DNA of 64,000 nucleotides from a virus. Numbering within the stretch: the first letter of the stretch is position 1; each line of letters starts with the position of its first letter. The notes under the pieces were generated by a model. That model ran no database searches. It was given only the letters and a program-made list of their open reading frames with translations, and was not told where the DNA came from. Positions 9,571-59,369 of the stretch are shown here, in pieces. Where the stretch lies: IMG/VR virus record IMGVR_UViG_3300024264_000006, positions 64,001 to 128,000 of that record, one strand, 5' to 3'. The translations under genes and the position numbers were made by a program.

Positions 9571-9759
9571 TCATTTACTTTGTTGCTTAGATTTCTCTGA
9601 CCACTTCTCCATAAATCTGGACAAAACCTTAGCCATATCTTTGCGTTTCTTTTTGCGGTCAAACTTCTTACGGACAACAACGGTAGAAGAATCATCACCA
9701 GTTCCGACTACAGAACTAGTTCCAGTCATCTCTTCATAGAACTTATCGAATGATTTCAT
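9571..9759 (-). CDS. Small protein with capsid-targeting-like N-terminus
   Basis: MKSFDKFYEE resembles T4 CTS MKTYQEFIAE. Confidence 0.65.
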   Translation of the reverse strand: MKSFDKFYEEMTGTSSVVGTGDDSSTVVVRKKFDRKKKRKDMAKVLSRFMEKWSEKSKQQSK

Positions 9760-10352
9760 TTTGTTATCTCTCCGGTTGTGAAATATATGCGTTGTCTTGT
9801 TTTTAAATGTGTTCCTTCGTATATACTCAATCCCAACATCTCTTCAACCGGATTACCGTCTACGATTCTAATTTGATCGTCTTTACTGACAGCCTCAACA
9901 AAAGATGTTGCTGTCATGGAATCGTTCTTCATACGATATACGCCAGGCGATAACTCATTACCCTGTAACATAAACCACTGAGAATCTTCAGCGAGTACGT
10001 CAAGGATATCGATACCAGTCTTTGCGTGGATTTTTTCTATGTCGGTGTCAGATAGTTCACCGTGTTCTTTGATGAGAGCGAGAGCAGCACCATAACGTGC
10101 AACGACTGACTTACCGCCAGGCGCTTTCGCCATGATCTTCTTTAGGTTATATACGAGACGATGAAATGCGGTATAGTGATCTCTAAGGGCTTCACGATTC
10201 TCCATTGTATTATCGTCGAAGTCCTTACGTCTTTTTCCGTTCTCATCTACGATGCCTAGTTTGAATGCTTCAGTGTTTTCGATAGGAGTTACTAGCAACT
10301 TCAGAAATCGAATAGTGTATACTAGGTCTGCTGCAGATTTTAAGATTCCCAT
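9756..10352 (-). CDS. Conserved marine T4-like phage protein
   Basis: AADLVYTIRFLKLL...YTAFHRLVYNLK pattern. Confidence 0.7.
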   Translation of the reverse strand: MGILKSAADLVYTIRFLKLLVTPIENTEAFKLGIVDENGKRRKDFDDNTMENREALRDHYTAFHRLVYNLKKIMAKAPGGKSVVARYGAALALIKEHGELSDTDIEKIHAKTGIDILDVLAEDSQWFMLQGNELSPGVYRMKNDSMTATSFVEAVSKDDQIRIVDGNPVEEMLGLSIYEGTHLKTRQRIYFTTGEITK

Positions 10353-10718
10353 CTATATTCTCCTAATCTCTCTTAATCGCTCTACTGCGAGTTGATCCAT
10401 ATTTACTTCAGGATATCCATGTTCGTCAATGGCTCTTAGAAAAATTAGAAATGGTTTTAATACTGACCAGTGTTCCTTTTCTATTTTAAACTCTAGGATG
10501 TGTAATCCCGCCTCATAACCAAACACATTAAATACAACTATGAGGTGATTCAGAACCAATCTTTCACTCAGATCACCTTGGTCTTTATATCGGTTCAACA
10601 ATCTCTTTATGTACTTGAACCGTTTTAAGTCTTCAAAAAACTGATCACCATCAATCGCCATTGGTGTGTGATAATGCTTTGCTGCATATATCATCAGGTT
10701 CTTACTATTCAAATTCAT
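10353..10718 (-). CDS. Conserved marine T4-like phage protein
   Basis: YAAKHY...EDLKRFKYIKRLL...ERLVLNH pattern. Confidence 0.75.
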   Translation of the reverse strand: MNLNSKNLMIYAAKHYHTPMAIDGDQFFEDLKRFKYIKRLLNRYKDQGDLSERLVLNHLIVVFNVFGYEAGLHILEFKIEKEHWSVLKPFLIFLRAIDEHGYPEVNMDQLAVERLREIRRI

Positions 10719-10765
10719 TATATACCTTTCAGGATAAAATTAAGTCTATCCTTTATATAGGGGTG

Positions 10766-11074
10766 TCAAGATAGTTTTTCTATAAGACTCTTTTTACTAT
10801 CCCAAGTACGTACTTCAACACCACTTTGCTCTGCAAGAGCAACCAATTGAGGTTTAGTCATTGATGACAAACCCACGTTTCCGACAGGAGCTTCATGTAA
10901 CATCTGTGGTGCTTGATGAACTACCTGTTCCGTGACTTGACTAACACCAAGATAATCTTCGATCTCACCAGAAGTAATTCTTTGTGATTTCAAAAGTTCT
11001 CCCGTGACCGGATCAATCCAGCCACGAGTAGTAGGTGTAGAACTTGAAGCCCATGAGGGTGGTTTAATTGCCAT
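10766..11074 (-). CDS. Hypothetical protein with C-terminal Rho-N/HeH-like helix pair
   Basis: LSSMTKPQLVALAE...KKSLIEKL. Confidence 0.6.
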   Translation of the reverse strand: MAIKPPSWASSSTPTTRGWIDPVTGELLKSQRITSGEIEDYLGVSQVTEQVVHQAPQMLHEAPVGNVGLSSMTKPQLVALAEQSGVEVRTWDSKKSLIEKLS

Positions 11075-11076
11075 AA

Positions 11077-11781
11077 TTAGTCCTCTACTTTCTGATCTGC
11101 AACTTCTTGTGCGATTTCACCCCAAGTCTTACCAGACAATACATCCATGATCTTCTCACGTGATGTACGAGTGTCTTCCTTTACGGGGTTAACAACATTC
11201 TTGTCACCAGACTTATTATCGCCGGGTCTCTTAGGTGCTTCTTTACCAGAGTTACCTGCTTTAGTTGTTGCGTCAACTGCCTTTTCTTGATGTTTCTCAT
11301 GTTCAGGATCAGACTTCTTGTGTTTCGCAATAAATTCTTTTGACTTAGGAGATTCCTTGTCATCGATTTTTTCACCTTCTTCAGGTTTTGCCTTGGCTGC
11401 TTCACCAAGTGCATCGACCAATTGATCCAAATCTTCTTTAGTAGTCACCTTCTCACCGATCTTAGAAATCTCAGCGGTTTTACCGTCTGTGTTACCGGCT
11501 ACAGGCTTCTTTTTCTTCTTATCTTTTGAAAGATCAGTCTCTCCACCTTCTTGATCCTTATCGTCACTCTTCTTAGCGTCGATAGCATCGTCGGTAGCAG
11601 CACGCTTCTTGTGCAGATACTCATCTGAAGAATCTACGTCTCCATCATTGTCGATGTCCTTGTCCTTACGATCTTTGAACTTCTTATCGTTCTCTTTATC
11701 GTCTACAGGATCAAGTTTCTTTTTCTCAGAGACAACCTCAAGATACGCCTCCGCCATTTTTTTGATATCTTCCGTTCTCAT
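11077..11781 (-). CDS. Highly charged putative internal head protein with EF-hand-like loop
   Basis: D/E/K rich; DIDNDGDVDSSDEYL; VSE, LGE and VKE potential gp21-type sites. Confidence 0.6.
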   Translation of the reverse strand: MRTEDIKKMAEAYLEVVSEKKKLDPVDDKENDKKFKDRKDKDIDNDGDVDSSDEYLHKKRAATDDAIDAKKSDDKDQEGGETDLSKDKKKKKPVAGNTDGKTAEISKIGEKVTTKEDLDQLVDALGEAAKAKPEEGEKIDDKESPKSKEFIAKHKKSDPEHEKHQEKAVDATTKAGNSGKEAPKRPGDNKSGDKNVVNPVKEDTRTSREKIMDVLSGKTWGEIAQEVADQKVED

Positions 11782-11792
11782 TATTGTCTCCG

Positions 11793-12086
11793 TTACATGA
11801 ACCAGAATAGTTTGATTATACCGCCGATCACACCAGTGCCGACGATCAGGGCGATTCTATTAATAATATGTACAGTCCTAGCATTATCATCCACTTTCTT
11901 TTCGATGTCATCGAGCTTCTGGGAGAATCTATTCATTCTCTCAAAATTAGAGTGGTTGTTCTTCTCAATAGCTATAAGCTTCTCCTCCGCCCGAGCGAGA
12001 GCAATCATCGCATCTGCGAGTTTATCAATCTTTTCCTCAATTCTGTCAAGTCGTTTTGCTTGAGTTTGATGAGTTTCTACTGCCAT
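11793..12086 (-). CDS. Coiled-coil protein with C-terminal transmembrane helix (late)
   Basis: RLDRIEEKIDKL coiled coil, hydrophobic C-terminus; late promoter upstream. Confidence 0.7.
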   Translation of the reverse strand: MAVETHQTQAKRLDRIEEKIDKLADAMIALARAEEKLIAIEKNNHSNFERMNRFSQKLDDIEKKVDDNARTVHIINRIALIVGTGVIGGIIKLFWFM

Positions 12087-12126
12087 TTGTGTACCTATCC
12101 CATAGAAATATAGTAATAACTTATTC

Positions 12127-12134
12127 TATTTATA
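12127..12134 (-). promoter_or_regulatory. T4-type late promoter
   Basis: TATAAATA on minus strand in an intergenic gap. Confidence 0.75.
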
Positions 12135-12139
12135 TTATT

Positions 12140-12490
12140 TTAATTATCAACCTTAGCGCTTCCACGCCATTGATAACAACTCCAATACCTCGCTTTCCAC
12201 TTAGGGCCAGGATTTGCACAATTGTGCCTTGCTCTAAATGACGCTCTCTTCTTAGGGTTGTCTCTATTGATTCCCATATTGGGATCACCAAATCGAACAA
12301 CCACAACCTTACCACTTTCATTCTTTACATACACCTTGAACTTCTTATTAGGGTTCTCAGATGTACGAATAGGGTCATTTAGTTTGACCTTCTTGCCTTG
12401 GTATTCTGACTCAGTTATTTCCAAGTCTTCGAAAAGATCATTGCATTCGCAATGTTCATCTATGCTTAAGTACTCTGTAAATTTTTTCAT
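12140..12490 (-). CDS. DUF6321-like basic protein with CTS-like N-terminus
   Basis: MKKFTEYL..; VRFGDPNM...RASFRARHNC...ARYWSC. Confidence 0.75.
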   Translation of the reverse strand: MKKFTEYLSIDEHCECNDLFEDLEITESEYQGKKVKLNDPIRTSENPNKKFKVYVKNESGKVVVVRFGDPNMGINRDNPKKRASFRARHNCANPGPKWKARYWSCYQWRGSAKVDN

Positions 12491-12771
12491 GTGATGTATG
12501 TATTGAGTTCGTAACGTTTGTTGTCCAAATTAGTTACCTGTACTGCAAGCATCTTACGCTTCTCATCCTTTAATTTGAGAGTGAAACTGTTGGTCTTACC
12601 ATTGGAAGGTTTCCTAGGCCCCATTGCCACCTTTCTATCAATGTCATCGGTATCCACTTCAAAACCCCTTTTCTTCGCAAATGCGTATGCAGCTGCCATC
12701 GCAGCAGAATAGGTTTTGTGGTAGATTGGATAAGAATCCTTCTTTTCTCTTAATTGGTCAAATGTAATCAT
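12487..12771 (-). CDS. Putative internal protein
   Basis: MITFDQLRE N-terminus; YELNTY C-terminus. Confidence 0.65.
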   Translation of the reverse strand: MITFDQLREKKDSYPIYHKTYSAAMAAAYAFAKKRGFEVDTDDIDRKVAMGPRKPSNGKTNSFTLKLKDEKRKMLAVQVTNLDNKRYELNTYIT

Positions 12772-12773
12772 GG

Positions 12774-13505
12774 TTACCTCTTCTTCATCATTTTGTAGGC
12801 GATAGAGGCAAGAGCGGGGACAGTCATTCCGTCCATTCGCTTCTTGTTCTGATCATTGACTTTATCGTAGATTTGAGTAATTGCGGATGCTGTAAACATA
12901 TCTACCATAACACCATTGACCTTCTTGGCCTGTTGATTCTTTACTATATCACGTAGTTGATCCATATGTCCAGCCTTTTTTTCAGTAATTCCATCACAGT
13001 TCTCTGCTTGTTCTTCAATTTCAGTAGATTCAAACATTTTAGCAAGTTGCTTCGCATTAACTGTTTTGAATGAACCGAACTCATCAGTAACCCTAAATGA
13101 TAACTTACTACCATCAACTTTCATATCGACGGTGTGTACTTTACCCTTCTTATCTCTAAGACCTTTTTTAATCTTAGGGGGTCTTGCAGCCTCACTGACT
13201 TCTGCTTGTTCTTGCATCAAGCGTCCATTCTTGAACATTCCATGTTTCTTAAGAATTGTCAAAACACCATCACGGGGATCGGTGTCCATATTAGAAACAT
13301 GTTTCTTCAATCCCATGAATGCCTTGTTCTGAACCATAGTAGATGAGTTTTTACCAATCTCTCTTACGTATGCGGCCGCCTTTTCGAAATCTCTCTTGTC
13401 GATACCACCAGACTTCTTTGCGTAGTCAGATAGTGCCTTGGATGTCTTGAAGAAATCAATTGATTCATTGACTTTTATTTTTTTACGCAGTTCTTTTAAA
13501 TACAT
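12774..13505 (-). CDS. Putative multi-module internal protein
   Basis: MYLKELR; modules separated by VNE/VSE/MFE/ITE; VDMFTASAI module. Confidence 0.65.
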   Translation of the reverse strand: MYLKELRKKIKVNESIDFFKTSKALSDYAKKSGGIDKRDFEKAAAYVREIGKNSSTMVQNKAFMGLKKHVSNMDTDPRDGVLTILKKHGMFKNGRLMQEQAEVSEAARPPKIKKGLRDKKGKVHTVDMKVDGSKLSFRVTDEFGSFKTVNAKQLAKMFESTEIEEQAENCDGITEKKAGHMDQLRDIVKNQQAKKVNGVMVDMFTASAITQIYDKVNDQNKKRMDGMTVPALASIAYKMMKKR

Positions 13506-13753
13506 TATGCTAAATCCTTATCGTGGTTGAGACCACCTTTTTTCTTTTTTACTATGAAGGCGTTGACACGTGCATATCCCCATTGTTGAGGGGTAGTGCC
13601 TGGCCTATGACCAGTCTTCCAAGCTGCAACACCACGATTATAAACCTTTCTTAAAGTAGCTACGGAGATACCAGATTTCTTTGCTTTCGCAGCAAGTCCG
13701 TCTGGGCCTTCTCCCAAGTCACCTAAACTGTCCCAAAGAGAGTATCGTTTCAT
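13505..13753 (-). CDS. DUF5824-like small basic protein
   Basis: KAKKSGIS..LRKVYNRGVAAWKTGHRPG..QQWGYARVNAF. Confidence 0.75.
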   Translation of the reverse strand: MKRYSLWDSLGDLGEGPDGLAAKAKKSGISVATLRKVYNRGVAAWKTGHRPGTTPQQWGYARVNAFIVKKKKGGLNHDKDLA

Positions 13754-15261
13754 TCCGTCTCCCGATTTTTAACTTTAGCACGAGCGAGTCTTGCTCGATC
13801 TAGAACTCTATCGTGTCTTTTTTTGTCTTGTTCTTTTTCTCTGTTGATATCATTACGAGCGGATTTTACTGGATCGGTCTCTTCATATGCCTCACCACGT
13901 ACCGCACCACCCAATGCTTTGATATCCAACTTCAAACCGTGTTTACGGATAAGTTGTTGTGCGTAGTACTCAGGGCCATGTCTACCCTTGTCCGCTTTCA
14001 TTTGTTTGCGGATATGTTTCGCAACTTGTTGGTACTGTTTTTTCTTAACTGTTTTTGATGCCCAACGGGATATCATCTGAGGTGTGGTCTCTGCCTTGAG
14101 ACACATCTCAAAAGTAATTTCAAGTTCTTCAGGTACGCAATCAGGAACCATCTTGTTCCCTTTCTTCTTCATACCGACTTCTTTGTACCCATCCCAACAG
14201 TCTTCGTCATACATATCTTTGAATGCTTTGGTGTACTTGGACGGTTTGGTCTTTGCGGTCTTGTCGCCAGGCGCAGGCTTATATGCAGATGCGTCATCAT
14301 CATCCTTCTTGCCATGCTTCTTAAAATGTGCGTCTCGTTTTGACTTGGTAGACTTCTTTAGTCCGGCGTGATATTTTGCGGGTTGTGTACCTTCTCTATC
14401 TTTGATATCGGGGTCTTGTCGTTCAATGAGTTCGACTGACTCCAACCATTTGCGTAGTCGAGTGCCGTTCTTGCGTTCAACGATAACGTAATTTGATCCG
14501 AGTACACTGACCGTAGCCACTTCTTCGCTTTCTTTAATAACAACAGAATCTCCAATTTCATAGAGTTTACCCTGTACATATTTTTCTCTTGTTTCTGAAA
14601 CAGGCGTTAGTTCAATATGATTCTTGAATGAGTGCTCTTCCTTGAGCCCCATCCCTTTACGGACATCATTGAACAACTTCCTTGCATCTCTGTCCGACAT
14701 AGACTTAGGCACACCCTGTGCAAAAGTCACGAAGTCATTGTTCTGTGCGTTTGCACGTTGCTTAGATGCGGACATACCTTCCACACCTTCAGCATCCGGA
14801 TCACGTTTACCAGCGGATACTACACGAATAGTTTCGAAGTTATAAAACCCGTGACGAGCTTTCTTACCATTGTACTTAGACAACAGGACATCAAACTCAC
14901 GTACACGGTCATCCCCGACAACCATTGTTACTTTTTTATACCCTTGGTCATACAACCGTGAGGCGACATCAAATACATTCTTGACGTTCTTGTCGATCAT
15001 CACACTACGTGCATGTTTTGGAAACATCTTACGCACATGTTTAACCTTGTCTGAATATGACAAAGGGTCTTTCTTGGGGTTTGATACTTGGGACAAATAG
15101 ACTTTGTAGTCTGCGCCACCAGATTTGGAGGCAAGTGTGTCCATTACTTTACCGTGGCCGATAGTAGGTGGGTTCATTCTACCAAAGGTAAAATAAACTT
15201 CCCTTTCTTCTTCGACTAGGTACTGTGAAAAATTCTTAATCATCTTTGTTCTGTCCGCCAC
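13750..15261 (-). CDS. HIGH-motif cytidyltransferase/NMNAT-like nucleotidyltransferase, multi-domain
   Basis: FTFGRMNPPTIGH, VVGDDR, SAGKRDPD..GMSAS; then KOW-like, QPAKY...KPSKYT and CWDGY..VPDCVP modules; likely start MIKNFSQYLVEE. Confidence 0.8.
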   Translation of the reverse strand: MADRTKMIKNFSQYLVEEEREVYFTFGRMNPPTIGHGKVMDTLASKSGGADYKVYLSQVSNPKKDPLSYSDKVKHVRKMFPKHARSVMIDKNVKNVFDVASRLYDQGYKKVTMVVGDDRVREFDVLLSKYNGKKARHGFYNFETIRVVSAGKRDPDAEGVEGMSASKQRANAQNNDFVTFAQGVPKSMSDRDARKLFNDVRKGMGLKEEHSFKNHIELTPVSETREKYVQGKLYEIGDSVVIKESEEVATVSVLGSNYVIVERKNGTRLRKWLESVELIERQDPDIKDREGTQPAKYHAGLKKSTKSKRDAHFKKHGKKDDDDASAYKPAPGDKTAKTKPSKYTKAFKDMYDEDCWDGYKEVGMKKKGNKMVPDCVPEELEITFEMCLKAETTPQMISRWASKTVKKKQYQQVAKHIRKQMKADKGRHGPEYYAQQLIRKHGLKLDIKALGGAVRGEAYEETDPVKSARNDINREKEQDKKRHDRVLDRARLARAKVKNRETE

Positions 15262-15664
15262 GCTTTCGGTCTTTTTCCATTTTGCGTACTTTAGGTAACA
15301 GTTTACGAGCTACCTTATCAATTTTAGGACGCATCTTATCTAGGCGTTTCTCTATCTCTTGTCTACGAGCAAATGAGAGTTTACCTTTATCCGCACCCTT
15401 AGTCAACTTTTTGAAGAACATAGTACGTGCTTGTTTCTGTGCACGTTTCTTAAGTTTGTCCATATCGGCAAATTTACGTGCAGCTCTTTTACGCCCCATG
15501 GCGATCTTAGCTTTATTCTTCTTGAGTGATCGTGCGAGTTTTCGACGGGCAGCAAAATCTAATGCTTCTTCGGCGTTTTTCTTTGATTTGTATGCAACCT
15601 GATCGTCACCCGATTGAGTGCGATCTGTGGTTGTGAAGTCTTTAAATCCTAATGGCTTTGCCAT
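15236..15664 (-). CDS. Very basic conserved phage protein
   Basis: K/R-rich helix after EEAL; LGFKDF N-terminus. Confidence 0.7.
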   Translation of the reverse strand: MAKPLGFKDFTTTDRTQSGDDQVAYKSKKNAEEALDFAARRKLARSLKKNKAKIAMGRKRAARKFADMDKLKKRAQKQARTMFFKKLTKGADKGKLSFARRQEIEKRLDKMRPKIDKVARKLLPKVRKMEKDRKRGGQNKDD

Positions 15665-15667
15665 TTC

Positions 15668-16885
15668 TTACCTCTTTGGTTTATCCCATCCTTTCAAAAT
15701 ATCAGGCGAAAAGTTGTTATATGAAAATTCCATACGGTCAACGAGTTTCACTGCGTCACCACCAAGTTTGTCGATTGCTACGTAGCCTTCTTCGCCAGTT
15801 ACCTTGTAACCTTTGTTTGTTTTAACGAACGTATCAATCTTCTTTAAACTATCAAGTTTATTTATAAGTTTCATCTTCGCTAAAACGATCTGTTTTTGCA
15901 ATTCAAACATTTTAACAAGAGATTTTTTATTTGTTAGTGAGAAAAATTTCATGTAGGCGTCGAGTTTATCCTGTTGAGTTTTCTTGCCTCGTGCAGTACT
16001 TCTCTTATCCATCTCTGCCTTGAACTTTTTATTGATCCAATTAATAAGTCCGTTTACGTGCGTAGAAGTGTTACCAATCACCTGGCCAACCCGCACAAAA
16101 GTGTTATTGTATTGTTCTATCAACTTGGCAAGGTCATCGTTACCTTCAAGTTCTCGCAGAGTAGTACCGGATATCTGATTGAACAATTTACCAGCCTTAC
16201 TCAAGTAACCCGTTACTTCCGCAGTTTCTTTCTTATCCATCGTTGCATTTGTCACATCACGTAACATGGCGTCCTGAGACCACACACCAACTGAGTTGCG
16301 GAACTTAGATACATCAACACCATAGGATGCTTTCATAGACTCAAAGTCCGATCCGGTGTAGGTAGTATGCCATACGATACCGATCTTAGATTTTAGAATG
16401 TCCCCAGCCATTGATACGGGAACAGCATATACGATAGTATTAGGATGGAACGTAACATATTTTTCTCCATCGATGGTCTCTTTCTTTAAATCGCCGGGCC
16501 CGTAGAGGAAGTCACCCTGAACAACACCCTTGATGCCTAGAGCAGGAAGTTCTGCAAGTGCAACCTTCATTTTGTCTGCAAGGTCACCACTCATGTCCAC
16601 ATCAATCTCAGCATCGGTCTTATAGATTTTTGGATTCTTTGCAAAGATACCCTTTTTCGCAACAAAAAACTTTCCGTCATTGGGGTCTTGACCACAGAAA
16701 ATTGCAGGCGCACCGTCCCACTTAATGGAGACTCGACCTGTATCCTTTCCGCCTAACATATCACGCAACTCACGTAGAGCGTTTATTGCTTGACGTGTAC
16801 CATCAACACCACCATAGAGAACCTTGTCCTCAATGTGGGTCATGTGGGTGTTTTTATTCTCTGTTATAAACTCTGCGAATTTCAT
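15668..16885 (-). CDS. DUF6267-like protein with ligase-type nucleotidyltransferase motifs
   Basis: KNTHMTHIED; KWDG, VQGDF, EEGYV, VKLVDR; MKFAEFITE N-terminus. Confidence 0.75.
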   Translation of the reverse strand: MKFAEFITENKNTHMTHIEDKVLYGGVDGTRQAINALRELRDMLGGKDTGRVSIKWDGAPAIFCGQDPNDGKFFVAKKGIFAKNPKIYKTDAEIDVDMSGDLADKMKVALAELPALGIKGVVQGDFLYGPGDLKKETIDGEKYVTFHPNTIVYAVPVSMAGDILKSKIGIVWHTTYTGSDFESMKASYGVDVSKFRNSVGVWSQDAMLRDVTNATMDKKETAEVTGYLSKAGKLFNQISGTTLRELEGNDDLAKLIEQYNNTFVRVGQVIGNTSTHVNGLINWINKKFKAEMDKRSTARGKKTQQDKLDAYMKFFSLTNKKSLVKMFELQKQIVLAKMKLINKLDSLKKIDTFVKTNKGYKVTGEEGYVAIDKLGGDAVKLVDRMEFSYNNFSPDILKGWDKPKR

Positions 16886-17331
16886 TTTCTCACCATGTTG
16901 AACATAGTTCCACTGCTACTTGTGTCGGTTGAAATCTTATATGCTCTGCCTAAATTCTTTGTTAAAAGTCTCTTGTACAATCTCTCTCTTCCCTGTAATA
17001 ATTTCTTATTACCTTTTTCTTTACCTGCCGCTGCATTCATATACTTGGGTTTTTCTATCTTAACAAATTGATTGACCACCTTAAAAACGGTTGCCATGAT
17101 ACGCAATGCATCACCCTCACCCGTCATTGATTGTTGACCATTACGTTCAAAACTAATCTCCCAATCTATGTGGTCATAGTCATCGATGTGTTCATCACCT
17201 TCGATGTTTATATTTAATTGACCACCATCATCAAGTTTAACTGTAGAACGATACCCCTGTTTCCCGTCCTTCTTTAGAGTGGCTGGATAAGGGTTGTCTA
17301 GTGATTCGGTTAGTTCTTTAAACCTAATCAT
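16882..17331 (-). CDS. Putative internal protein
   Basis: MIRFKELTE N-terminus; TGEGDALRIMATV...RERLY pattern. Confidence 0.65.
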   Translation of the reverse strand: MIRFKELTESLDNPYPATLKKDGKQGYRSTVKLDDGGQLNINIEGDEHIDDYDHIDWEISFERNGQQSMTGEGDALRIMATVFKVVNQFVKIEKPKYMNAAAGKEKGNKKLLQGRERLYKRLLTKNLGRAYKISTDTSSSGTMFNMVRK

Positions 17332-18428
17332 CAGTTTGCCTTCGTATTCGGTTTGTAATCACACATAATATGTGATGGGTAGAGACCACCCTGTTTGTTA
17401 CGAATATTAAATTTGAATATGTAGAGTGGGGTGACAACTTCTATGTCAATTCTTTTTGCTTCACCTTTCTTAGGATAGAGAATCTTGATCGACTTGATTG
17501 TAGAAGCCTTTCTCATACGTGCTCTAGTCATCTCATAGAACTCTACCTTCTTACCTTTACGGTGTACCATCCAGTATCCCATACCGATACCCGTAATCAG
17601 AAGTCTTTGTAGTGCACGTCTGTTTGCTTGTGTTGGAATGACAACATCTTTTTTACCACGAGTAGCCGCCTTTTTAGGATCGTACTTGGTAAACGTTTCG
17701 ATGAATCTATCATGATCGATGCCGAACATGTTTAATAGTTTCTTAGCATCAGTGTGTGTGATCTTGCCACTATTAAACTGATCGTCGGTAAAGATGGTGC
17801 GGACACCCGCATTGAAAAATGTTACTGTACCACCAAATTTGGCAGACAGATAGTATGTACCCTTGTCGGTAGTAACTGTTACGTCTGTTACTTTGTGACC
17901 AATGTTCAGTTCACGTGAACCGATAACTGCACTAACATCTCCGAACACTAAGGGTCTTTTGGTGTTCGCTGTACCGTCTAGTTTAACTTCGATAAAAGAT
18001 GCATCCTTCAGAAACGCATCGTGCATTTTCTTTATCATATTAGGGAACTTGAAATCCCCATCTAGACCGGCTTCTTTATACTTGATTAGGTCAGTCACAA
18101 TCTGACCTTCGAATGCAAACCCTTGTGAGTTTATTCCACCGCCTCCACGAGAACCATTTCCCGCACTAAGTTTGAAACCATATTCGGAACCAAGGGCCGG
18201 TAGATTTAAATCAACTGCAACGGATCGTGCAATTTTAAGACCTTTCTCTTTAGGATTTTTAGATAATGCAATGGGATCAGCCATACCAGTTTGCTGAGTG
18301 ATATAGGCGTAGAGTGTCTTGAGGTTTTCCCTCTTCTCATCGGATAGATGATCTAGGTCATCTACCTCTGCTTGAGATTTTGGAATTATGTCATATGCTT
18401 CTGACACATACGATCCGAACTTCAACAT
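17331..18428 (-). CDS. Putative PD-(D/E)XK-fold nuclease-like protein, late
   Basis: GFAFE...VTDVTV...YLSAK; MLKFGSYVSE N-terminus. Confidence 0.55.
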   Translation of the reverse strand: MLKFGSYVSEAYDIIPKSQAEVDDLDHLSDEKRENLKTLYAYITQQTGMADPIALSKNPKEKGLKIARSVAVDLNLPALGSEYGFKLSAGNGSRGGGGINSQGFAFEGQIVTDLIKYKEAGLDGDFKFPNMIKKMHDAFLKDASFIEVKLDGTANTKRPLVFGDVSAVIGSRELNIGHKVTDVTVTTDKGTYYLSAKFGGTVTFFNAGVRTIFTDDQFNSGKITHTDAKKLLNMFGIDHDRFIETFTKYDPKKAATRGKKDVVIPTQANRRALQRLLITGIGMGYWMVHRKGKKVEFYEMTRARMRKASTIKSIKILYPKKGEAKRIDIEVVTPLYIFKFNIRNKQGGLYPSHIMCDYKPNTKAN

Positions 18429-18465
18429 GGCGTTATTCCCATAAGTCTTGGTGATTATACCATAC

Positions 18466-18473
18466 TATTTATA
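18466..18473 (-). promoter_or_regulatory. T4-type late promoter heading the internal-protein cluster
   Basis: TATAAATA about 38 nt upstream of ATG 18428. Confidence 0.8.
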
Positions 18474-52280: not shown

Positions 52281-54001
52281 GCCGCTTCTTTTATTTTACT
52301 AAAGTTTTTTTCTTTGACGAACTCAATTCGACGTTGGAAAGCCGCATCTTCTAGTTCCGCCTTATGAGAAATCACAAACACATTAGTCTCTTCACCAAGT
52401 GTGTGTATGATCTTCATCAGGTTGTCCACCCCATCATCATCCAGAGATGAATCAAATGTCTCATCAAGGATTAGTAGGTTGGTTGCAACACTGTTCTTCA
52501 TCTTTGCAATCTGTCTCCATGTAAACAGTAGGGACAAATCAATACGTTGTTTCTCACCCTCAGAGAATGAGTCATACGAAAAGTTGTCACGGAACCTTGA
52601 TCGGATAGTCTCATTGAAACTCTCATCCAAATCAAAGTGTACAAAGAAATCTAGAATCTGTAAGTACTGATTAGTCAGTTGGTTGATGACCGGAAGGTAC
52701 TGTTTAATAATCTTGGTCTTGATACCAGTGTCACGAAGTAACTCCGAACTCACCTGTTGGTAAGAATAGTTTTCGTGTAGTTTATATTTCTGATCCTGTT
52801 TGGTATCTAATTCTTTATTCAGTCTCATTAGATCGTCGTTGGCTTCTGCGAGATCACCAGTGTTCTCTGCCATACTCTCTATCTCATTGCGGATACGATC
52901 TATGTTACGATTGATTCGTGTGATCGTTTGGTTGTTGTTGTTTACCACGTTTTGTAATTCGTTGACATCAGTCAACTCCGTGTTTAACTCTTTAAGTTGT
53001 GCCTCAAACTCTTCCATCTTACTATGAGATTCGTTCATGACATCATTAAGTTCTTTTGCACGTGTCTGTGCATCGGTCTTCTTGGTATCACGTAAGTCCT
53101 CATCGATGTCTTGATCGCACGTAGGACATATAGCATTGTCCTCAAAGAACTTGGCCTGTTTGACCACAGACTTAATCTCACTCTTAAACGAAGACTGATA
53201 GTTGAGTAACTTCTCACGTGACGTGGCGACTTTTTCTAGTTTCTTCGACAGGTCTTGTTGACGTGTCGTTGCGGTAGACATATTCTCAGTGTTGAAGTCT
53301 TGGAGTTCCGCAATCTCCGTGAGTAATACGGTGATCTCAGATTCTTTCTCCTTACGGTGTGCAGTGTTTAAGGCTGATAAGTCCCGCAAGTATTTCTTCT
53401 GTGAATTGATCTTAGTCTTGACAACTTCTATCTTATGTGAGTTGTCCTTGATGTCCTCTTTAAGTATAGACATTTTTTCTTTTAATAAGGCATTCATCTT
53501 ACTGAACATGTTGATGTCAAGTAAGTCTTCGATAACCTCACGCCTTGCACCACTACCCAATTGCATAAACGGTACAAAAGAACTTGATCCAAGAACAACA
53601 ATTTGATGAAACGACTTGTGAGTCAACTTCAGAATGTTGCGTTCTAGAATCTGTTGATATTCTTTTGCATGAGAGTTCTGATTAATCATGTTGTCATTGG
53701 CCCATATCTCAAACACGTTAGGTTTGATACCACGGACAATTTTATAATTAACCCCATTAACAGAAAAAAGAACCTCGACCAGTGTGCCTTTCTGATTGAC
53801 AGAATTGACTAACTGAGACTTGGATATCTTACGATGGGACTTACCAAAGAGTCCAAACGACAAAGCGTCCAACATCGTAGACTTGCCTGCACCATTGTCT
53901 CCCACCACCAACGTGGTAGGTTTTTGGGTCAGGTCAATCTCTGTAAAGTTGTTACCAGTGGATAGAAAGTTCTTCCACCTAATCTTCTCAAATTTGATCA
54001 T
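52277..54001 (-). CDS. 46: Recombination endonuclease ATPase gp46 (Rad50-like)
   Basis: GDNGAGKST, CPTC hook, FSEGEK, LILDE. Confidence 0.96.
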   Translation of the reverse strand: MIKFEKIRWKNFLSTGNNFTEIDLTQKPTTLVVGDNGAGKSTMLDALSFGLFGKSHRKISKSQLVNSVNQKGTLVEVLFSVNGVNYKIVRGIKPNVFEIWANDNMINQNSHAKEYQQILERNILKLTHKSFHQIVVLGSSSFVPFMQLGSGARREVIEDLLDINMFSKMNALLKEKMSILKEDIKDNSHKIEVVKTKINSQKKYLRDLSALNTAHRKEKESEITVLLTEIAELQDFNTENMSTATTRQQDLSKKLEKVATSREKLLNYQSSFKSEIKSVVKQAKFFEDNAICPTCDQDIDEDLRDTKKTDAQTRAKELNDVMNESHSKMEEFEAQLKELNTELTDVNELQNVVNNNNQTITRINRNIDRIRNEIESMAENTGDLAEANDDLMRLNKELDTKQDQKYKLHENYSYQQVSSELLRDTGIKTKIIKQYLPVINQLTNQYLQILDFFVHFDLDESFNETIRSRFRDNFSYDSFSEGEKQRIDLSLLFTWRQIAKMKNSVATNLLILDETFDSSLDDDGVDNLMKIIHTLGEETNVFVISHKAELEDAAFQRRIEFVKEKNFSKIKEAA

Positions 54002-56583: not shown

Positions 56584-57015
56584 TTATACCTTATTGGGGG
56601 TAGGTATGGCAAGTGAAGAAACCCTTCGGCGTAGGTCAGATGTTGAAAACCTATGGTCTCTTCGGTTAAAATAAATTTCAATACCACGAGCAGCACACGT
56701 TGCACGGCCTGTGAATTTCTTATCCTTATATTCCGCACCTATAATTCTTACATCAAAGTCAAACATTTTAAGGATATCTTCCAAGTCCTGTTCTGTTTGA
56801 TAGGGAATAATTTCGTCAACATATTTAATCGCCTGTAGTTGCGTCCATCTTTCAACTAACGTTTGTACGGGTGGATTCTTTTCAGGTCTATCTGAGGAAG
56901 GGTCAACTTGTAGGGCACAAACCAAATAATCACATTGACCTTTGGCTTCTCTCAACATAGAGACATGACCAGCATGAAGTAAATCAAACGTGCTCGCAGT
57001 AAATCCTGTAATCAT
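56584..57015 (-). CDS. TagD-like cytidylyltransferase
   Basis: FDLLHAGH, YVDEI, RDHRFSTS. Confidence 0.88.
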   Translation of the reverse strand: MITGFTASTFDLLHAGHVSMLREAKGQCDYLVCALQVDPSSDRPEKNPPVQTLVERWTQLQAIKYVDEIIPYQTEQDLEDILKMFDFDVRIIGAEYKDKKFTGRATCAARGIEIYFNRRDHRFSTSDLRRRVSSLAIPTPNKV

Positions 57016-57873: not shown

Positions 57874-59369
57874 GACTTATCCTTTAGATTAATTGGGAAA
57901 ATTTTATATTTAAAACCTTCTCTACTATATATCTTTATTCTTTCAGCAGAATGTTTCAGGGTGAAATTCCGATAACCTCTACAATGTAGATCATCTGATA
58001 TATCATAAAGGTTAGTAGCAACCCCATTGTCACTTTTTCGTAACCCTCTACCGATAGACTGAAGTACCTTAACTTGTGATTTACTTGGAGAAGCAAAGAC
58101 AATATTATGGAGATTCCTAATATTAATCCCAGTAGAAAAAGTTCCAAGGCTTGCAACGATGATAGCATTTTTTTGACCCTCTACGATACCACGTATCTGT
58201 TCTCTATCTGAAGCATCAACTTCACCGGACACATAAAATACTTTTCGATTTTCCTCAGATTCTCTTTTTATTAGATCATATAAAACTTTACCGTGTTTTT
58301 CTACAAACTGAAACAGCACCAGAGTGTTGCCTTCTTGATCCAAAGTAAGTCTCTTTATGAATTGATTTCTTCTCTCATTAGTTACTATATATTCAATTTC
58401 TTCTTGATAGGTTTTGCCTTTCATTTTGACGCATTCGTCATTGTGATATCTTAGTAACAATACTTTGATATCTAAGTCTGCGAGTTGATTGTCCTCTTGT
58501 AGTTTTACTGTGGTAGTGACCTTGAACACGGGCCCGAAAAGACCTTCAAGTACAAGTTTGTTCGTTTCAGTACCATCAAGTGTACCTGTAGTACCGATAC
58601 GATATCTAGCATTGACACACTTATCCATGAGAGTGCCTAAAGATTTGGCTTTAAATAGATGTACCTCATCCCCAAAAACACAATGGAAATCTTCAAACCA
58701 TTCTCTACCAAATTTGTAGATAGATTGCCACGTAGATATAATTATCCTCTTGTCGGTAGTCTTGTCCTTACCTGAGTAGATCATGTGGCACTGATTCTCT
58801 ACGTCATATCCGTAGTCTCTGAAGTCTTTATACATCTGTTCTACTAAAGAGGTTGTTGGTACTACAACAAGAATCTTTCCATTCTCGTTCTTCTCAATCC
58901 ATCTCATTACATTATAAATGATAAATGATTTACCGGAACCCGTAGGTGATAGAAGAATTGCACGTTTGTTCTCAATGCTGTGAGATACGGCCTCGTACTG
59001 ATAGTCGTAAGGTTCGAAAGGCGCTTTGAGGTTTCCAAGGAACTTCACCAAGTCTGGGTGGGATATCTTGTTCTTTGCGTTTGGTGTTCCCCACTCATAG
59101 GAGTCTATGATTTGTAGGGGATAGAATCGGTCTCCGCAAAATTTACGTAGTTGGGTATACAGACCGACATGAATCTGTTTGGTGACTTGATTATAGAGTT
59201 TGATCTTACCATCCCACTGGCGTCTCTTAAAGGCAGGCATAAACTTATGGCCCGGCACAAAGAAAGAGAAGTACTCACGTAACTCTTGTTCCTGTGAAGG
59301 GTTAGATTCTACTGCCATGTAAGAGTTGCTAAGCATCTTAACTCTTATAGTGTTATCCGCCGGATTCAA
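57870..59369 (-). CDS. uvsW: UvsW RNA-DNA/DNA-DNA helicase
   Basis: PTGSGKS, DEVH, TGT, QSIGRGLR. Confidence 0.95.
   Translation of the reverse strand: MNPADNTIRVKMLSNSYMAVESNPSQEQELREYFSFFVPGHKFMPAFKRRQWDGKIKLYNQVTKQIHVGLYTQLRKFCGDRFYPLQIIDSYEWGTPNAKNKISHPDLVKFLGNLKAPFEPYDYQYEAVSHSIENKRAILLSPTGSGKSFIIYNVMRWIEKNENGKILVVVPTTSLVEQMYKDFRDYGYDVENQCHMIYSGKDKTTDKRIIISTWQSIYKFGREWFEDFHCVFGDEVHLFKAKSLGTLMDKCVNARYRIGTTGTLDGTETNKLVLEGLFGPVFKVTTTVKLQEDNQLADLDIKVLLLRYHNDECVKMKGKTYQEEIEYIVTNERRNQFIKRLTLDQEGNTLVLFQFVEKHGKVLYDLIKRESEENRKVFYVSGEVDASDREQIRGIVEGQKNAIIVASLGTFSTGINIRNLHNIVFASPSKSQVKVLQSIGRGLRKSDNGVATNLYDISDDLHCRGYRNFTLKHSAERIKIYSREGFKYKIFPINLKDKS

Follow-up and report, generated by a model that had tools for sequence, protein, structure and literature searches.

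DUF6267 ranks among the large protein families of ocean viruses that lack annotation, and we infer that it constitutes a new, abundant and hitherto unrecognised clade within the superfamily of ATP-dependent ligases (covalent nucleotidyltransferases), coupled to an enzyme that resembles nicotinamide mononucleotide adenylyltransferase (NMNAT). The member under study is a 405-aa protein (Pfam E 2e-104; also a match to the unannotated phrog_455) encoded at 15668-16885 (-) of a 64,000-nucleotide stretch of viral DNA, referred to here as the window, which comprises positions 64001-128000 of the 147.6-kb IMG/VR virus record IMGVR_UViG_3300024264_000006, a genome estimated to be 87% complete. Its partner, a HIGH-motif protein named "cytidyltransferase" (CT; first listed as the open reading frame (ORF) 13750-15261 (-)), lies two genes downstream, with a very basic protein encoded between them (15236-15664 (-)), and all three ORFs are located where an earlier note on this DNA, made from the letters of the sequence, had placed them.

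The source of the window is a marine myovirus of T4-like type, a relative of Phage C48C1, the OM43 (Methylophilales) phage Melnitz and pelagiphage HTVC008M, which are its nearest sequenced phages and of which C48C1 and Melnitz are classified as Kyanoviridae. The minus strand carries almost all of the window's genes, T4-type replication and repair genes among them.

Conserved motifs of DUF6267 and size of the family

The earlier note had read the 405-aa protein as an ATP-dependent RNA ligase from four motifs standing in the order expected of the superfamily, and these have been located at residues 55-58 (KWDG), 122-126 (VQGDF), 365-369 (EEGYV) and 379-384 (VKLVDR). In an alignment of 93 sequences, made up of the window protein and 92 representatives (35-60% identity), only 17 columns are invariant, including K55, D57, G58, D125, E366, G367 and K380. 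Motif I (K55-W-D57-G58), which has the KxDG form with a lysine at the nucleophile position, is invariant throughout, and motifs III, IV and V follow in canonical order with the equally invariant D125, E366-G367 and K380. Since seven motif residues fall among only 17 invariant columns, the alignment indicates that the motifs picked out by the earlier note are the most constrained positions of DUF6267 and no coincidence. Lys55 is the nucleophile predicted to be adenylylated, and its codon lies at 16721-16723 (-). At the N-terminus, a leader (MKFAEFITE, residues 1-9) is followed by a conserved HxxHxED element (residues 14-20), and the FFVAK78KG element resembles ILFK119SKG of Rnl1, with similar spacing from motif I.

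The family is large, with 2,537 clusters at 50% identity in an exhaustive search of representatives; close relatives by themselves account for more than 8,000 clusters at 90% identity, and the family has been found in 465 sequenced phages, nearly all T4-like cyanophages included. A scan of GTDB for cellular contexts returned almost only metagenome-assembled contigs resembling binned phage DNA, together with one isolate contig (Nonlabens), and no host-gene neighbourhoods. A shorter homologue, corresponding to the first ~180 residues of DUF6267 (motif I to the motif IIIa region), was observed in some cyanophages away from CT, as in P-SSM2 (58603-59016), S-SM2 (53469-53882), and S-SSM7-type and ACG-2014f phages. 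DUF6267 is unmentioned in the literature searched, and its pairing with CT is undescribed, as far as searched, in surveys of phage NAD+ and RNA-repair systems.

Predicted fold and relationship to known ligases

From the 93-sequence alignment, AlphaFold2 (AF2) produced a confident model of the protein, with a predicted local distance difference test (pLDDT) score of 94.7 and a predicted template modelling (pTM) score of 0.91. The model consists of an N-terminal helix, a beta-rich core that holds motifs I to IIIa, a helical insert at residues 218-345, and two strands that carry motifs IV and V. The insert, recognised from the secondary structure of the model and from composition (15851-16234 (-); 128 residues, all-helical and basic, pI 9.9), separates motif IV from the motif IIIa region, a position at which known ligases have no insert, and may be a module that binds nucleic acid. 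Only 25 residues follow K380 of motif V, too few for an OB domain, and the protein has none.

An exhaustive VIA-align search of the PDB with this model gave as its leading matches the ligase domain of Trl1 (9r3w, Z 7.8, 201 aa) and the Naegleria RNA ligase NgrRnl (5cot, Z 7.7, 188 aa), followed by T4 Rnl2 (Z 7.3), T4 Rnl1 (9do4, Z 7.2, 167 aa), archaeal Rnl3 and trypanosome REL1 (both Z 6.5) and DNA ligases (Z ~6). The matches that extend over at least 150 residues number 17, and every one is an ATP-dependent ligase; the short rows interspersed among them are helical bundles that match the insert. In a second structure run, Naegleria Rnl was matched at Z 8.4 (6vt3; root-mean-square deviation (rmsd) 3.9, 187 aa) and T4 Rnl2 at Z 7.3 (2hvq, 180 aa). 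Among the predicted viral structures of BFVD, DUF6267 members came first, and most of the named matches below them are RNA ligases (Atu_ph07, phiQ1, Aeromonas, iridovirus, ASFV and RM378), with a SET-domain protein and a portal protein as low-score non-ligase matches. RNA ligases rank above DNA ligases in all three structure searches, and capping enzymes are not among the structure matches listed. In the comparison with Rnl1 and Rnl2 that the earlier note had suggested, VIA-align matched both enzymes. The Foldseek search against the PDB was not significant (best E 0.098, a DNA ligase), and the fold assignment rests on VIA-align and residue conservation.

Links at the level of sequence are faint. 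Identity to Naegleria Rnl5 and T4 Rnl2 is 10-13%, and the Pfam family RNA_lig_T4_1 (PF09511) is weakly matched by 4 of the 93 members (best E 6e-4); the window protein itself matches neither PF09511 nor PF01068. Aligned with hhalign to T4 Rnl1, the DUF6267 alignment gave a single segment, EEGYVAIDKLGGDAVKL with IEGYVAVMKDGSHFKI, which corresponds to motifs IV-V (probability 0.6%). NCBIfam holds no family for any protein of the cluster, a search of the ESM Atlas returned only unnamed viral clusters, and queries of PDB sequences with the CT and DUF6267 proteins found nothing relevant.

Several of these observations count against a ligase assignment. A conserved valine (V382) stands where motif V should have its second lysine, although R384 nearby is almost invariant, and in motif III the expected E is a D. 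The structural Z scores of 7-8.4 fall in the middling range of the tool's own scale. Neither phmmer nor the DUF6267 profile found anything relevant among PDB sequences, the alignment profile found nothing in the T4 genome, and hhalign against the single T4 Rnl1 and Rnl2 sequences stayed below 1% probability, with the motif IV(-V) segment only. With these points weighed, DUF6267 is very probably a nucleotidyltransferase of the ligase superfamily with an intact active site. It stands outside the Rnl1, Rnl2 and DNA-ligase families as defined, because it lacks both a profile match and an OB domain, because its helical module precedes motif IV, and because a valine occupies the position of the second motif V lysine. 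The designation as an ATP-dependent RNA ligase is thus upheld for the superfamily and for the nearest structures, which are RNA ligases, and is not upheld for membership of Rnl1, where both a profile match and the C-terminal helical domain are missing.

Linkage and fusion of DUF6267 with the cytidyltransferase

In 74 of the 80 IMG/VR loci retrieved with the DUF6267 alignment, CT is encoded downstream of DUF6267 on the same strand, and the six loci that lack it all have less than 1.5 kb of DNA downstream of DUF6267. CT was also present in 18 of 25 loci in a second, more divergent sample, derived from GTDB and restricted to loci with at least 2.5 kb downstream. The co-occurrence on which the earlier note had staked its proposal is therefore found in other phages, and in some of them the two genes are fused. 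The basic protein stands between them in 57 of the 80 loci, a DUF5824 gene follows CT in 46 of the 80, and the three-gene order of DUF6267, basic protein and CT recurs in the soil Stenotrophomonas phage DLP_6.

Fusions in the order DUF6267-CT are seen in P0125, P0253, P0247, P0189, P0169 and P0245, and in the reverse order in P0181 and P0236. In several of these the junction is short and without a leader, including P0125 and P0253 (DUF6267-CT) and P0181 (CT-DUF6267). The HIGH domain of P0189 and P0169 is of a second subtype (GRYQGFQRGH). Phage S-PM2 encodes a fused form of 591 aa. The dependence runs one way, where DUF6267 is almost never found without CT and CT is often found without DUF6267, and the CT family is the broader of the two (556 phage records vs 465).

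A P-loop kinase (Zeta_toxin/AAA_33-like) is an optional third member in 9 of the 80 loci, with none near the window's cluster. In some cases it follows CT within a fusion, in others it precedes DUF6267 in a fusion whose junction keeps a leader, and in others again it is a separate gene next to the pair (L058:6870-9062, L071:3185-5254 and L055:7522-9450; P0121; L034:4951-5625 and L069:740-1366). Its family is ambiguous, since it weakly resembles adenylate kinase, PSTK and zeta toxin alike, and by analogy it echoes NadR/COASY-type cofactor synthases and Pnk-ligase repair systems alike.

Two observations speak against a functional coupling of the pair. The "fusions" P0121, P0135 and P0142 keep a leader at the domain junction, and these may be cleavable polyproteins or artefacts of gene calling. 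In addition, jumbo phages (RaK2-like and PA5oct-like) have CT with no detectable DUF6267 beside it, which suggests that CT is useful by itself. A 446-aa protein of PA5oct (BFVD A0A4Y5JUK8) was found to match the DUF6267 model (Foldseek E 5.5e-5), and on the basis of this model-level match, jumbo phages with a seemingly lone CT may keep a very divergent DUF6267 partner.

Architecture of the cytidyltransferase

The CT gene is more likely to start at the ATG at 15243, giving a protein of 497 aa (13750-15243 (-); matched by the PHROG "cytidyltransferase" families phrog_395 and phrog_3041 at E 1e-67), because this start forms an ATGA overlap with the upstream stop and provides a leader, MIKNFSQYLVEE, that is common to homologues. 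In the AF2 model (pLDDT 84), the leader and the HIGH domain are followed by a small beta-barrel, then by a basic linker that is disordered, and finally by a Cys knuckle and a helical tail. In the HIGH domain (residues 13-203; 14635-15207 (-)), which is NMNAT/PPAT-like (PPAT, phosphopantetheine adenylyltransferase) and of the form TxGH...SxSxxR, the motifs GRMNPPTIGH (residues 21-30) and SASKQR (158-163) are invariant or nearly so in 48 homologues, with T27-I-G29-H30 and S158-x-x-K161-x-R163 fully invariant. The window protein scores 18.2 bits against Pfam CTP_transf_like, under the 21-bit cut-off.

Structural comparison by VIA-align gave NadM (2qjt, Z 12.7, 158 aa), NadD (3h05, Z 12.5), archaeal NMNAT (1f9a, Z 12.1), PPAT (4nah, Z 11.8) and NadR (8x7f, Z 10.6), and Foldseek matched NadD (8aih, E 1.9e-5). 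These results bear out the NMNAT/cytidyltransferase-like domain described in the earlier note, and by motifs and modelled fold CT belongs to the HIGH nucleotidyltransferase superfamily (PF01467 clan). NMN adenylyltransferase is the leading reading of the model, with PPAT statistically tied; NMN is not separable from phosphopantetheine or other substrates by the CT fold, given Z 12.7 for NadM vs 11.8 for PPAT, and the TxGH spelling of the first motif is PPAT-like.

The beta-barrel (residues 224-275; 14419-14574 (-)) is SH3/KOW/Tudor-like by its structure matches, which include the NusG KOW domain (1m1g, Z 8.1, rmsd 1.2, 49 aa) and Tudor/PWWP domains (Z 7.5-8.3). A Cys-flanked basic hairpin, CWDGYKEVGMKKKGNKMVPDCVPE, occupies residues 349-372 (14128-14199 (-)) in a part of the model where pLDDT is partly low. 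DUF5824 is split in the window, where CT residues 294-353 (14185-14364 (-)) weakly match profile positions 1-55 and an 82-aa protein (13505-13753 (-)), whose start overlaps the CT stop, forms the C-terminal half (Pfam E 5e-20, profile positions 64-125). Other phages have DUF5824 unsplit, fused to the C-terminus of CT.

A late operon with capsid-targeting-like leaders

The pair belongs to a cluster at 9571-18473 (-), in which genes overlap by 1-8 nt and all six of the proteins examined are basic (pI 9.2-10.8). A match to the T4-type late promoter consensus, TATAAATA, lies at 18466-18473 (-), some 38 nt upstream of the start (18428) of the first gene of the operon. This gene (17331-18428 (-); phrog_8438) encodes 365 aa with the leader MLKFGSYVSE, which fits positions 4, 7, 8 and 10 of the T4 capsid-targeting sequence (CTS) exactly, and is a variable element, being present in only 4 of the 80 related loci. 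Next comes the gene of a basic protein of 149 aa (16882-17331 (-)) that matches DUF6934 weakly and has a leader-like start, MIRFKELTE; the stop of this gene overlaps the DUF6267 start. The protein between DUF6267 and CT is indeed very basic, as the earlier note had remarked, with 142 aa, a pI of 10.8, 34% K+R and a match to phrog_23027.

Leaders that resemble the T4 CTS are carried by DUF6267 (MKFAEFITE), CT (MIKNFSQYLVE), the 365-aa protein and the product of 9571-9759 (MKSFDKFYEE). When the 98 ORFs of the window were scanned at their N-termini for a strict pattern (aromatic-x-x-aromatic/L-aliphatic-x-acidic), four matched, all within 9.5-18.4 kb, against ~0.4 expected (Poisson P ~8e-4), and the T4 CTS itself (MKTYQEFIAE, the propeptide of IPII and IPIII) was verified twice in the T4 genome; the CTS-like leaders proposed by the earlier note are thus real. 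In mutagenesis work, targeting was reported to depend on CTS residues 4 and 7, and processing on residues 8 and 10 (PMC9026906). The leader behaves as a detachable module, being present in 37 of the 93 DUF6267 members, the rest of which begin directly at KNxHxxHxED. A gene for a gp21-type protease (Peptidase_S77, E 4.5e-42) is present in the window's genome. At the sequence level, then, the leader pattern, the gp21-type protease and the late promoter that characterise CTS-targeted head proteins of the T4 type are all in place.

Published proteomes bear on whether such proteins reach the virion. CT or NMNAT homologues have been reported in purified virions of S-CREM2, S-SZBM1 and S-SCSM1 (PMC10665884, PMC9146016, PMC9602691), and in S-SZBM1 (L098, 77500-85500) the virion-detected CT starts with MRFRQFIIE and the adjacent DUF6267 (SSZBM1_141) is leaderless. 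The virion protein S-SZBM1_139 was considered as a DUF6267 homologue and rejected, being the gene downstream of CT. In S-CRM01 (L091), a leaderless DUF6267 is followed by a kinase starting MISFDQFLSE, which is probably the putative protein kinase that has been detected in S-CRM01 virions (PMC10665884). In the few cases checked, the presence of a leader tracks published virion detection, where the S-SZBM1 CT and probably the S-CRM01 kinase have both and the S-SZBM1 DUF6267 has neither.

Against packaging stand three points: DUF6267 is not reported in the S-SZBM1 virion proteome (no mention in the text of the paper), the S-CREM2 virion proteome is without the ORF upstream of CT, a putative DUF6267 homologue, and TATAAATA is not enriched in the window overall, with six matches that include 12127-12134, before the next gene group, and 15859-15866, inside the DUF6267 gene and upstream of the basic protein. 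The virion delivery put forward in the earlier note is consequently supported by mass spectrometry for CT homologues of cyanophages and not for DUF6267. The DUF6267 leader is present in C48C1, Melnitz and DLP_6, and packaging of DUF6267 is predicted from sequence for the window's clade, not for the whole family. The leader would thus serve to predict which homologues are packaged, being present in the pelagiphage/OM43-phage clade and absent in S-SZBM1 and S-CRM01.

Companion enzymes in the genome

RNA-repair and NAD+-rescue systems are ordinarily accompanied by further enzymes, and searches of the 147.6-kb genome for these weigh against either role in its usual form. No 2H phosphoesterase, no Tpt1 and no other RNA ligase was found, nor was NadV (PF04095), which according to published surveys always accompanies phage NadM (PMC9503650). 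There is no Pnk-type kinase near the cluster, and two sub-threshold AAA_33 matches occur elsewhere in the genome, one of which (E 5e-5, 20 bits) is in a 300-aa open frame outside the window (G000:C1:45527-45997 (-)) that could encode a nucleotide or polynucleotide kinase. With healing enzymes and NadV both missing, the tRNA-repair and NAD+-rescue pathways would each be without their usual companions, and for this reason the classical forms of both modules, tRNA repair by Rnl together with Pnkp, 2H or Tpt1 and NAD+ salvage that depends on NadV, were downgraded. A ligase without end-healing enzymes could act only on breaks with 3'-OH and 5'-phosphate ends.

A separate 143-aa ORF of the window, at 56584-57015 (-), begins MITGFTASTFDLLHAGH, which is the classical signature of TagD/RfaE-type cytidylyltransferases, so that the phage has two different HIGH-family enzymes.

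Proposed function and alternative explanations

On balance, the probable explanation is that DUF6267 is an RNA-type nick- or end-sealing ligase which, together with an NMNAT-like adenylyltransferase, is made late and probably injected. Lys55 of KWDG would accept AMP from a nucleotide donor, D125, E366/G367 and K380 would complete the nucleotide pocket, and the basic helical insert would hold nucleic acid, substituting for the OB or C-terminal domains that known ligases have. DUF6267 would most likely seal 3'-OH/5'-phosphate breaks, with RNA or RNA-containing duplexes likelier substrates than DNA. DUF6267 would act jointly with CT, which would probably make NAD+ or a related dinucleotide. DUF6267, the basic protein, CT and several neighbours would form one translationally coupled late operon, and since DUF6267 and CT carry T4-type capsid-targeting propeptides, the operon proteins that bear them would probably enter the head through the gp21-type protease system and be injected along with the DNA.

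Of the other explanations, each of them unlikely, the foremost is that DUF6267 is a DNA nick-sealing ligase that replaces the T4 gp30 lacking in the clade, with CT giving indirect help, for example as a source of NAD+ for the host LigA. PF01068 was not found in the window's genome or in C48C1 and Melnitz, and PF01653 was not found in C48C1 and Melnitz (OQ984149, MZ577095), the two closest complete genomes; DUF6267 stands, moreover, in a neighbourhood of gp41, MazG, primase and exonuclease in cyanophages and in a T4-like phage of Vibrio, and DNA ligases are themselves among the structural matches. A simple replacement of gp30 was nevertheless downgraded, because S-CRM01, Vibrio phage EniLVp02 and DLP_6 own a canonical PF01068 ligase besides DUF6267, and the explanation is further at odds with the higher rank of RNA ligases in every structure search, with a protein that stops so soon after motif V and has no OB domain, and with a late promoter and a capsid-targeting-like leader that are ill-suited to a replication enzyme. 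Somewhat less probable again is that DUF6267 and CT are biochemically uncoupled, as independent cargo of one internal-head-protein locus that share late expression and packaging, with some fusions being protease-cleavable polyproteins. The leader common to many genes of the 9.5-18.4 kb block, the junction leaders of P0121, P0135 and P0142, the lone CT of jumbo phages and the virion proteomes that report CT and not DUF6267 all agree with this, as do the P-loop kinase, DUF5824 and other modules that have been shuffled into the locus and fused in varying combinations. Against it, the upstream cargo genes vary, as the 365-aa gene does, whereas the DUF6267-CT pair is found in every one of the 80 loci with enough DNA; leaderless short-linker fusions exist in both orders and with two HIGH-domain subtypes, and leaderless cyanophage DUF6267 still adjoins CT.

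Less probable than either is that the ligase fold serves a non-joining role, such as 5'-adenylylation or capping, or AMPylation of a protein or small molecule, for which the HIGH enzyme would make or recycle the nucleotide donor. The missing second lysine of motif V, the D for E in motif III, the odd layout of domains (helical insert, no OB, conserved N-terminal HxxHxED) and a strict dependence on a dinucleotide-synthase-like partner, which has no precedent among RNA ligases, would suit such a role, but the closest structures are all true polynucleotide ligases, no capping enzyme appears among the matches listed, and nothing speaks directly for an alternative acceptor. The most doubtful proposal is that of a new two-enzyme nucleotidyl-transfer system, in which CT would make or regenerate a dinucleotide AMP donor for DUF6267, or the pair would install an NAD/App-type 5' cap immediately after injection. 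In its donor form, CT would regenerate NAD+ or a relative from the leaving group, and in its cap form the target would be phage or host nucleic acid. It fits the one-way dependence, the leaderless fusions in both orders and the HxxHxED element near the ligase core, and if the NAD+-donor form were true, DUF6267 would be the first NAD+-type RNA ligase outside LigA.

The assignment of a ligase fold, with Lys55 as a named predicted nucleophile, and the identification of the "cytidyltransferase" repeatedly found in cyanophage virions as the near-constant genomic partner of DUF6267 give a testable biochemical hypothesis for both proteins. They bear on the apparent lack of a ligase in the window's genome and in C48C1 and Melnitz, the closest complete genomes examined, and they suggest enzymes that these phages may inject before gene expression.

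Comparison with known systems

The operon resembles the system of the T4 internal proteins IPI-III and Alt, head proteins that are targeted by a CTS, processed by gp21 and injected, which have a propeptide of ~10 residues with aromatics three apart followed by an aliphatic residue, any residue and Glu, and which are likewise basic proteins with a late promoter, a gp21-type protease and a variable locus of diverse cargo. It differs in that the putative cargo would be two nucleotidyltransferases and not restriction inhibitors or an ADP-ribosyltransferase.

CT shares with NadM, NadR and archaeal NMNAT the HIGH-type Rossmann fold, with GRxNPPTxGH and SxSKxR at the expected positions, and as in NadR, the HIGH domain is fused to a P-loop kinase in some CT relatives. 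In contrast to NMNATs, its first motif is TxGH, as in PPAT, and not HxGH, there is no Nudix domain, and a KOW/Tudor-like barrel, a Cys knuckle, part of DUF5824 and a leader are added; the setting differs from phage NAD+ salvage in that NadV is absent from the window's genome.

Among ligases, DUF6267 is unlike the DNA ligases (PF01068 with an OB domain), since it has neither the OB domain nor a profile match. With T4 Rnl1 and the fungal Trl1 ligase domain (PF09511) it has in common the nucleotidyltransferase fold, a motif IV spelled EGYVA with the motif V lysine 13-14 residues further on, a lysine in an h-h-h-x-K-x-G element 20-23 residues past motif I, a helical accessory domain that replaces the OB fold, and the weak Pfam matches of 4 of the 93 members. 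The helical domain stands before motif IV in DUF6267, whereas the Rnl1-type domain is appended after motif V; moreover, the window protein has no significant sequence match to this family, a valine replaces the second motif V lysine, the pairing is with a HIGH nucleotidyltransferase and not with Pnkp, and a capsid-targeting-like propeptide is carried. Of the nick-sealing RNA ligases, Naegleria gruberi Rnl5 has an OB-like domain at its N-terminus and T4 Rnl2 a further domain C-terminal to motif V. Neither domain is found in DUF6267, but these two enzymes are its best overall structural matches, and they need only 3'-OH/5'-phosphate ends, which fits a genome without end-healing enzymes.

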